64,000 nt of DNA from a virus (IMGVR_UViG_3300032123_000052:144086-208085); one strand, 5' to 3'. Positions 19,615 through 20,314 are shown, numbered from the stretch's first letter. Notes: generated from the letters alone by a model not told the origin. Program-made: numbers and translations.

Positions 19615-20314
19615 AATAAGCCTTTTGCGTGCGCGGAAGAAACAATCGTTCTAAAATAATAAACGGATTATACCACCCATTTCCCTCGCGTGCGCGAAAG
19701 AAACGAGATAAAAAACAGCCTGGTGATGTTTGCCTCCCCATTTCCCTCGCGCGCGAGAAAGAAACTGATACCGTAGTGCTATAAGGCATAACGCCTCCCC
19801 ATTTCCCTCGCGCGCGCGGAAGAAACCCATGGCCAGTGAGAGTTTGACATTTTTCCTTCCCATTTCCCTCGCGCGCGCGGAAGAAACTAGAGAGAGAATT
19901 GTTAGATAACTGATAAGAACCCATTTCCCTCGCGCGCGCGGAAGAAACAGATCGTCAATGGCAATAGGGTTACCTTCACCCCCATTTCCCTCGCGCGCGC
20001 GGAAGAAACCGTCACCAAATATTTTGCATAGTCTTTCGAAACCCATTTCCCTCGCGCGCGCGGAAGAAACGCCAGCAGGTGCCCACGACCTTGGATCCCC
20101 AGCCCATTTCCCTCGCGCGCGCGGAAGAAACTTTTCAATTTTCTCCTTATTCATTGTCAACCCCCCATTTCCCTCGCGCGCGCGGAAGAAACCGAAAAAA
20201 TTAGGAGCCTCGCTGACCTCCTCACCCATTTCCCTCGCGCGCGCGGAAGAAACAGTGGAAGCGAATTTGCGGGCAATTGGTGCTGCCCATTTCCCTCGCG
20301 CGTGCGGAAGAAAC
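19615..20314 (-). CRISPR. CRISPR array: 11 full 29-nt repeats plus 1 degenerate terminal repeat, 11 spacers all 32 nt
   Basis: Repeat (minus) GTTTCTTCCGCGCGCGCGAGGGAAATGGG; + strand starts 19676, 19737, 19798, 19859, 19920, 19981, 20042, 20103, 20164, 20225, 20286; exact 61-nt period; degeneration at the left end implies minus-strand transcription. Confidence 0.98.

Follow-up and report, generated by a model that had tools for sequence, protein, structure and literature searches.

The window analysed in this work, which consists of the final 64 kb of a single virus record of 208,085 bp, derives from a marine sediment metagenome, and the record has a CheckV rating of 100% complete. Positions 19615-20314 of the window are occupied by a CRISPR array, in the sense of at least three direct repeats, nearly identical, with unique spacers of one fixed length between them; it is comprised of 12 repeats of 29 nt with a period of 61 nt, and of 11 unique spacers, each of which is 32 nt long. 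In the contigs from the source sample the array spacers were identical, with zero variants. The array is accompanied by a gene for a Cas12f homologue, by two copies of a tracr-like RNA and by the gene for a small Zn-ribbon protein, and the coordinates of these features, together with those of the spacers that are of main interest here, are summarized in Table 1.

Table 1. Features of the array locus, listed by position in the window
Feature	Position	Strand	Description
Zn-ribbon protein, 79 aa	19241..19480	-	same strand as the array and downstream of it; conserved in 9 loci
tracr-like RNA, copy a	19499..19575	-	77 nt, downstream of the array; 83% identical to copy b
CRISPR array	19615..20314	-	11 repeat-spacer units (29 + 32 nt) and a terminal repeat
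Terminal repeat	19615-19643	-	leftmost; only the 5' 17 nt of the consensus kept
Spacer	19644..19675	-	oldest spacer; begins TGGTATAAT, extended -10 look
Spacer	19705..19736	-	GAGG at start; no standard start codon at SD spacing
Spacer	19766..19797	-	GAGGCGTT-ATG; GAGG-4 nt-ATG, open frame, ATG at guide position 9
Spacer	19827..19858	-	AAGGAAAA-ATG; AAGGA-3 nt-ATG, open frame, ATG at guide position 9
Spacer	20132..20163	-	GGGTTGACA-ATG; open ATG at guide position 10
Spacer	20193..20224	-	TGAGGAGG at start; no start codon
Leader	20315..20418	-	AT-rich, between tracr-like RNA and first repeat
tracr-like RNA, copy b	20419..20495	-	77 nt, three hairpins, between effector gene and array
Cas12f-like effector P0001, 442 aa, predicted nuclease-dead	20512..21840	-	assigned by profile, fold and RuvC loss

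The genes neighbouring the array are all on the minus strand, the truncated terminal repeat is the leftmost one, far from the effector gene, and the duplex predicted between repeat and anti-repeat contains a G-U pair in the minus sense only, which on the other strand becomes an A-C mismatch. Based upon this locus layout, the position of the truncated repeat at the far end and the G-U pair, the minus strand is the crRNA sense of the array, and the orientation that had been assumed in an earlier account made from the sequence alone (referred to below as the sequence-only reading) was therefore correct. The leader-proximal end of the array is its right side. The same order of gene, tracr-like RNA and array on one strand is observed in eight related loci (L001, L003, L004, L008, L015, L018, L019, and L021), and in another (L013) the gene and the array are on one strand, separated by an ORF-bearing stretch of ~600 nt.

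No consensus sigma-70 promoter was detected in a promoter scan of the leader. The final 16 nt of the leader (20315-20330) and positions 3-18 of the newest spacer (20254-20285) are identical at 13/16 positions in direct orientation. Regulation of the array's own leader by the newest spacer was considered and set aside; as the PAM-proximal positions of this spacer are mismatched to the leader, as judged by eye, the identity is more likely to be a duplication relic than a sign of self-regulation.

Across the 208-kb record no match to Cas1 or Cas2 was found, so that no adaptation module was recognized in it. Searches for Sigma70_r2 and Sigma70_r4_2 also gave zero matches in the whole phage genome, and the ten ORFs neighbouring the array contain no sigma domains. 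Elsewhere on the minus strand, the window carries an IscB gene with RRXRR and HNH domains (34943-36445) and a HEARO/omega RNA (36469-36673), and a canonical TnpB with a TNB domain is encoded in another part of the phage (G000:C1:125522-125716), which brings the phage total to three distinct RNA-guided protein lineages. A tmRNA missed by ARAGORN was identified at 43258-43656 on the minus strand (Rfam RF00023, 118.7 bits); because it had no blastn match in the GenBank phages, it provides no clue to the host. A protein with Fib_succ_major and CarboxypepD_reg domains is encoded at 44633-45931 (minus strand), and these domains, which are commonest in Fibrobacteres and Bacteroidetes, would provide a weak host clue, one that sits oddly with the clear SD use of the phage.

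The Cas12f-like effector and its associated RNA

When the 442-aa ORF was searched alone, no match to any Pfam or PHROG family was detected. An exhaustive phmmer search with the effector identified at least 150 representative clusters (50% identity, metagenomes), with E values below 1e-30 for 57 of 150. A family profile constructed from 60 members was compared with the sequences in PDB, where it matched OsCas12f (E 3e-26) and AsCas12f (E 1e-20), and the solved dCas12f 9n9c was matched more weakly (E 2e-16) than the active OsCas12f. The AlphaFold2 model of the effector has a mean pLDDT of 89, and in Foldseek its best matches were all Cas12f, TnpB or dCas12f proteins (E 3.6e-13). In addition, the Pfam family Cas12f1-like_TNB was matched by 4/60 of the relatives. 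By both sequence and fold, the effector is a Cas12f homologue.

In the HMMER alignment, the RuvC-I Asp is replaced in the effector by Glu268 and the RuvC-II Glu by Leu374. The C-terminus lies 46 aa past a conserved YK motif, with no cysteines in this tail, and because the protein stops so soon after the motif, the zinc-finger/RuvC-III segment is missing. The effector thus possesses neither an intact RuvC Asp-Glu-Asp triad nor the C-terminal zinc-finger/target-nucleic-acid-binding domain. These changes are family-wide: the eight commonest residues in the RuvC-I column, which account for 56/60 members, do not include Asp, Glu being the commonest (17 members), the RuvC-II Glu is retained in 7/60, and the tail past the YK motif is 11-51 aa long in 59/60. 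The premise of the sequence-only reading, that the effector does not cut, is borne out by these alignments, from which a Cas12f-derived protein predicted to be non-cutting is well supported; it presumably binds DNA. Members of the effector family are located on viral contigs, and no relatives were found by tblastn in the GenBank phages or plasmids, or with two peptide patterns in the GTDB species genomes.

The two copies of the tracr-like RNA share the same three-hairpin fold, with compensatory changes in hairpins 2 and 3. At its 3' end, copy b carries an anti-repeat for which pairing over 11 bp with the middle of the repeat is predicted, and its 5' CCAUUU is predicted to form a 6-bp duplex with the 3' AAAUGG of the repeat. 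Two repeat:anti-repeat duplexes, such as are predicted here, are formed by the tracrRNA of active Cas12f. The gain upon cofolding of the tracr-like RNA and the repeat was -17 kcal/mol, with two duplexes, but as shuffled GC-rich repeats pair about equally well, the cofold energy alone proves little. Homologous tracr-like elements are present in L001, L003, L015, L018, L019, and L021, where they are sited before the arrays of these relatives, and L021 contains two tandem modules of tracr-like RNA and array. Across the relatives, the repeat and the tracr-like RNA co-vary.

The Zn-ribbon protein varies in size from 65 to 80 aa across the loci and carries the motif CxxC..F.P..RQ.YCS..CR; its gene is found in other loci at L006:5248-5472, L008:5370-5591, L015:2532-2729, L016:4230-4424 and others. 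In L006, L008, and L015, the last repeat of the array abuts the RBS and start codon of this gene. Pfam and PHROG scans of the protein matched no Pfam family and gave just generic zinc-ribbon hints. That it represents the split-off zinc-finger/RuvC-III part of Cas12f was considered and rejected, since a conserved acidic motif is absent from it, and the effector has lost RuvC-I and RuvC-II in any case.

Arrays of other formats were also observed among the related loci. Mini-repeat arrays, with units of 6-12 nt (e.g. GGGTGATGG, [AT]AATGG, GGGGATAATGGG) that lie 11-40 nt apart, are present at L002:2960-3670 and 700-1380, L005:4880-7000, L015:2395-2505, L016:4870-4960, and L011:1990-2388. In L015, where a full repeat is present alongside, the mini-repeat units correspond to the 3' end of that repeat, and L011 contains three tandem units of tracr-like RNA, handle and guide, which are single-guide-like. 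These mini-repeat arrays and the L011 units have the appearance of intermediates between CRISPR arrays and single-guide RNAs, and the effector family would provide snapshots of arrays collapsing into mini-repeats and single guides. A second array type, with a 32-nt repeat starting GTTTCA[TA]CTCGTGCGCGGG, is found in three IMG/VR contigs ~900 nt downstream of the dead Cas12f-like gene (L006:5966-6240, L007:6079-6224, and L008:6085-6520); in L006, an RNA-like region before this array contains, by eye, a match to the reverse complement of the 5' end of the repeat.

Start-like features of the spacers

The sequence-only reading had described the spacers as resembling translation starts and promoters, and all of the spacer features that it quoted are indeed present when the array is read on the minus strand (Table 1). 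The spacers at 19705, 19766, and 19827 all open with RAGG. The spacer at 20132 contains no SD upstream of its ATG within the spacer, and TTGACA and, later, AAGGAG are present in it. In the 20010 spacer an ATG is followed by an in-frame TGA, the spacers at 19949, 20071, and 20254 resemble ordinary coding sequence by eye, and a start-like feature is absent from 7/11 spacers. With regard to the promoter-like motifs, rough estimates indicate that the lone TGGTATAAT -10-like case in the 19644 spacer is not above chance, and that a single TATAAT and a single TTGACA are unremarkable among 11 spacers. The spacer at 20193 can also be read, by eye, as a weak hairpin followed by a T-run.

The definitions of the statistical tests applied to these 11 spacers were composed after the description in the sequence-only reading, and as they were written after that finding had been read, the P values given here are nominal. 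An SD 4-mer located 4-10 nt before an open ATG is present in 2/11 spacers vs 1.3% of random 32-mers from the phage genome (P=0.0085), and when ATG, GTG and TTG are all allowed as start codons, an SD-led start is observed in 3/11 spacers (P=0.003). The same SD+start test gave 0/11 on the antisense strand. With the inclusion of three spacers from the close relatives L001 and L003, one of which (from L003) has AAGGAG at its start and TTG at position 10, the count for SD+NTG becomes 4/14 (P=5e-4); the L001 array is cut off by the end of its contig. In a start-site matrix trained on 177 crude gene starts of the phage itself, the 19766 spacer lies at the 98th percentile of random 32-mers and those at 19827 and 20132 lie at the 99th; scores at or above the 95th percentile were obtained for 3/11 spacers (P=0.015) vs 1/11 on the antisense strand. 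An SD is present in 46% of the phage's own genes vs a background of 7%, and since the phage genes use SD, SD-led starts fit its host system. The start-site enrichment, which is observed on the sense strand only, is moderate; it is worth following but not established.

Searches by BLAST with the spacers, which had been proposed in the sequence-only reading as a check, yielded zero protospacers. That reading had noted, by eye, no full match inside the window, and none is present in the whole 208-kb genome of the phage either (blastn-short, and 16- and 20-nt PAM-proximal seeds compared with shuffles). Querying the GenBank phages and PLSDB plasmids with the complete array, IMG/VR with exact 22-mers of six spacers, the GTDB species genomes with the GC-rich spacer 20071, and the loci of relatives retrieved here likewise gave no protospacer. 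In the contigs of four runs, which cover the source sample and two others from the same study, the matches listed were just the phage's own contigs. When viral records of relatives were examined for self-targets of the L005 mini-guides and of the L008 and L004 spacers, the only matches were of 10-12 nt, as expected by chance. As all of these searches were negative, the targets should lie outside this phage and outside these collections, and as no protospacer was found, the gene-silencing interpretation is plausible but unproven.

Explanations for the spacer content

The interpretation that we prefer, at a probability of roughly 0.45, is that the phage encodes a type V system that only binds DNA, that the spacers are its guides and that it silences genes from their 5' ends. 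In such a system, the array would be transcribed on the minus strand, and crRNAs in which the 3' part of the repeat is kept would pair with the tracr-like RNA and be loaded into the dead Cas12f-like protein. In Cas12-type systems the guide matches the non-target strand in sequence, and the PAM is located 5' of it. The start-like guides (three or four) are all in the mRNA sense, and hence the template strand would be the one that they pair with; the PAM would then lie immediately upstream of the RBS, and the PAM-proximal face of the complex would be directed at the promoter. Binding at the 5' end of the target gene could then produce a polar roadblock or a promoter-proximal occlusion. With dead Cas12a in transcribed regions, repression was best with template-strand crRNA, and at promoters either strand could be used (PMC5460296). 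The targets would be genes of the host, or of competing mobile elements, that have SD-led translation and lie outside the phage, and guides to gene starts may be over-represented because, when the effector cannot cut, only such positions silence. Within this scheme, it is by inference that the effector binds DNA and represses, that 5' ends were selected for and that the targets are of the kinds named.

The start-like trio was picked by eye from a small sample, and it could have arisen by chance among ordinary acquisitions without any positional preference. The position-agnostic tests are weak: with the position left free to allow for the look-elsewhere effect, P is 0.059 for three open ATGs within any 2-nt window, a 3-mer common to three spacers at one and the same position, whichever it may be, arises often (P=0.78), and an open ATG anywhere is present in 27% of random 32-mers. 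Most of the spacers lack a start-like feature, and the enrichment was not replicated in more distant relatives, where SD+ATG is found in 0/43, SD+NTG in 1/43 and a high matrix score in 2/40 spacers. Further, the GC content of the spacers is about equal to that of the contig in every locus, which indicates that there is no general bias to AT-rich intergenic DNA. However, the composite tests for start sites, in which the hypothesis takes its natural form, gave P=0.003-0.015, every match is on one strand, and the L003 spacer, among only three from the close relatives, again combines AAGGAG with a start codon at position 10. Chance is thus a possible but doubtful explanation. The claim that the spacers resemble starts therefore holds for the sequence features and the nominal P values, but not for the corrected ATG clustering or the distant relatives, and the further claim, in which a location on gene 5' ends is the reason for the retention of the guides, can draw on 3-4/11 spacers at the same nominal significance, but it was not replicated in the 40-43 distant-relative spacers, and no protospacer was found.

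A fixed register is also what would be expected if starts were oversampled without any selection for silencing, as the sequence-only reading had itself suggested with an AAG-type PAM. A purine-rich PAM overlaps the SD, and it could belong either to the effector or to the acquisition machinery, which would probably be supplied by the host and be type I-E-like in its 29+32 geometry; this geometry is found here in a phage without Cas1/Cas2. The SD begins precisely at the first spacer position in three spacers of the window and in one from L003, with start codons at 9-10, which is just the arrangement that an SD-linked PAM would produce. The comparison with random AAG-adjacent 32-mers was carried out on the phage's own genome, which serves as a proxy for the target genomes, and the observed rates exceed this null. 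RAGG at positions 1-4, which is present in 3/11 spacers, has an expected frequency of 0.4-1.0% under any PAM tried, AAG included, and SD+ATG, present in 2/11, is expected at ~1.3-2.2% when the null is conditioned on AAG or ten other PAMs; for AAG, AA, AAA, G or T-rich conditioning the corresponding values are ~1% and 1.5-2.2%. With this proxy the conditioned null stays at ~1-3% and does not reproduce the enrichment, and a bias coupled to the PAM appears improbable. More improbable still is that the crRNAs are used by a nuclease-active CRISPR system of the host, or that a nuclease or some other partner is brought in by the dead protein; targets would then be destroyed, and the position of the guide would not matter. 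The type I-E-like repeat length and spacing, and the conserved Zn-ribbon gene after the array in 9 loci, are in keeping with such a role for other machinery. Against it, the repeat is predicted to pair with the adjacent tracr-like RNA and the two change together across the relatives, the array always accompanies the dead Cas12f-like gene, the exact repeat was not found in IMG/VR, and the Zn-ribbon protein has no conserved acidic nuclease motif. Lastly, guides could mark transcription start sites if RNA polymerase were recruited for RNA-guided activation in the manner of dCas12f-sigmaE. Transcription-activating dCas12f homologues do exist (PMC13472631), and a gene of the sigma-70 family lies ~4 kb away from the effector in the related locus L002; however, the 208-kb phage has no match to sigma-70 region 2 or region 4, and the known start, 45-48 bp downstream of the TAM (PMC13472631), would here fall inside the coding sequence, past the start codon. 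Activation is accordingly very improbable, and even when it is taken jointly with the use of other machinery, the two explanations carry little weight.

Silencing from gene 5' ends by a binding-only system is therefore the reading that we retain. A more comprehensive statement of it, that a jumbo phage encodes a natural multi-guide CRISPRi, made up of a dead Cas12f-like protein and a tracrRNA, whose guides have been selected onto the RBS and start codon of particular genes of the host or of rival phages in the polar-roadblock orientation, within a virus-borne family evolving from full arrays to mini-repeat and single-guide formats, is offered tentatively. TnpB/Cas12f-derived repressors (TldR, dCas12f) are a recent discovery, and those known so far aim one fixed guide, or a few, at a promoter of the host; with a dead Cas12f that is served by a full array of 11 spacers, this phage would be evidence that programmable, multi-target silencing is maintained by viruses. 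If the start-site bias is true, spacer content records selection for a silencing geometry (5' end, template strand), and it would supply a design rule taken from nature for CRISPRi tools of miniature size, as well as a readout of the genes that the phage silences. If the reading of selection for position and strand is true, this would be the first natural array with spacers selected for silencing, not cutting.

Comparison with known systems

The active type V-F Cas12f proteins (AsCas12f 8j12, OsCas12f 9nzq) are the best profile and structural matches of the effector, and they are of similar size (~420-440 aa). Unlike them, the effector has its catalytic Asp and Glu replaced and lacks the zinc-finger/RuvC-III segment. 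Type V-M Cas12m proteins, for which the solved chains are ~520-600 aa, show a much weaker fold match to the effector model (E ~1e-5); they keep a modified RuvC site and need no tracrRNA. Cas12m is a natural effector that interferes by binding and transcriptional silencing, not by cutting of double-stranded DNA (PMC10442227). In CRISPRi with engineered DNase-dead Cas12a, the best orientation is toward the template strand (PMC5460296), which is also that of all of the start-like guides here; as that system is engineered, has a large effector and is without tracrRNA, the analogy is functional only.

The dCas12f-sigmaE systems (PMC13472631) share with this locus a dead Cas12f fold, and 9n9c and 9n9m are among the Foldseek matches of the effector. 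They are operonic with rpoE, use single chimeric guides without a tracrRNA, recognize a 5'-G TAM and activate transcription, whereas the phage has no sigma-70 family gene, and hence no rpoE association, and carries a tracr-like RNA and an array. The same study (Hoffmann et al., Nature 2026; PMC13472631, Extended Data Fig. 1a,b) also reported an uncharacterised cluster of putative dead Cas12f proteins beside bacterial CRISPR arrays, the guides of which sometimes match efflux promoters; the example is from a Chitinophagaceae MAG, and repression near promoters was proposed. The effector shares with this cluster its derivation from Cas12f, the loss of part of the RuvC site by truncation at the C-terminus, and the adjacency to an array. 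Compared by description, the differences are that the cluster is bacterial, whereas the present locus is in a 208-kb phage and has an 11-spacer array, a duplicated separate tracr-like RNA and a conserved Zn-ribbon gene.

The TldR proteins (Wiegand et al.; 10.1101/2023.11.30.569447) are RuvC-dead derivatives of TnpB, some of them encoded by phages or prophages, which exclude RNA polymerase at promoters, and a phage-encoded TldR represses host fliC at its promoter (10.1101/2023.11.30.569447). Like the effector described here, TldR is miniature, RuvC-dead and C-terminally truncated, and it is an RNA-guided DNA binder, as the effector would be too. However, TldR is TnpB-derived and uses a single short, omega-RNA-like guide (9-11 nt in some homologues), fused to its scaffold, against one conserved host promoter and with no array, whereas the locus of this phage has an array with 11 spacers, each of 32 nt, and its tracr-like RNA is separate; profile and fold searches place the effector nearer to Cas12f than TnpB. 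A literature search on related terms turned up no account of a phage system of this kind. The locus would extend the known RNA-guided repressors of the dCas12f/TldR type to a jumbo phage, in which an array, copies of a tracr-like RNA and a Zn-ribbon gene are present together, with no sigma factor.
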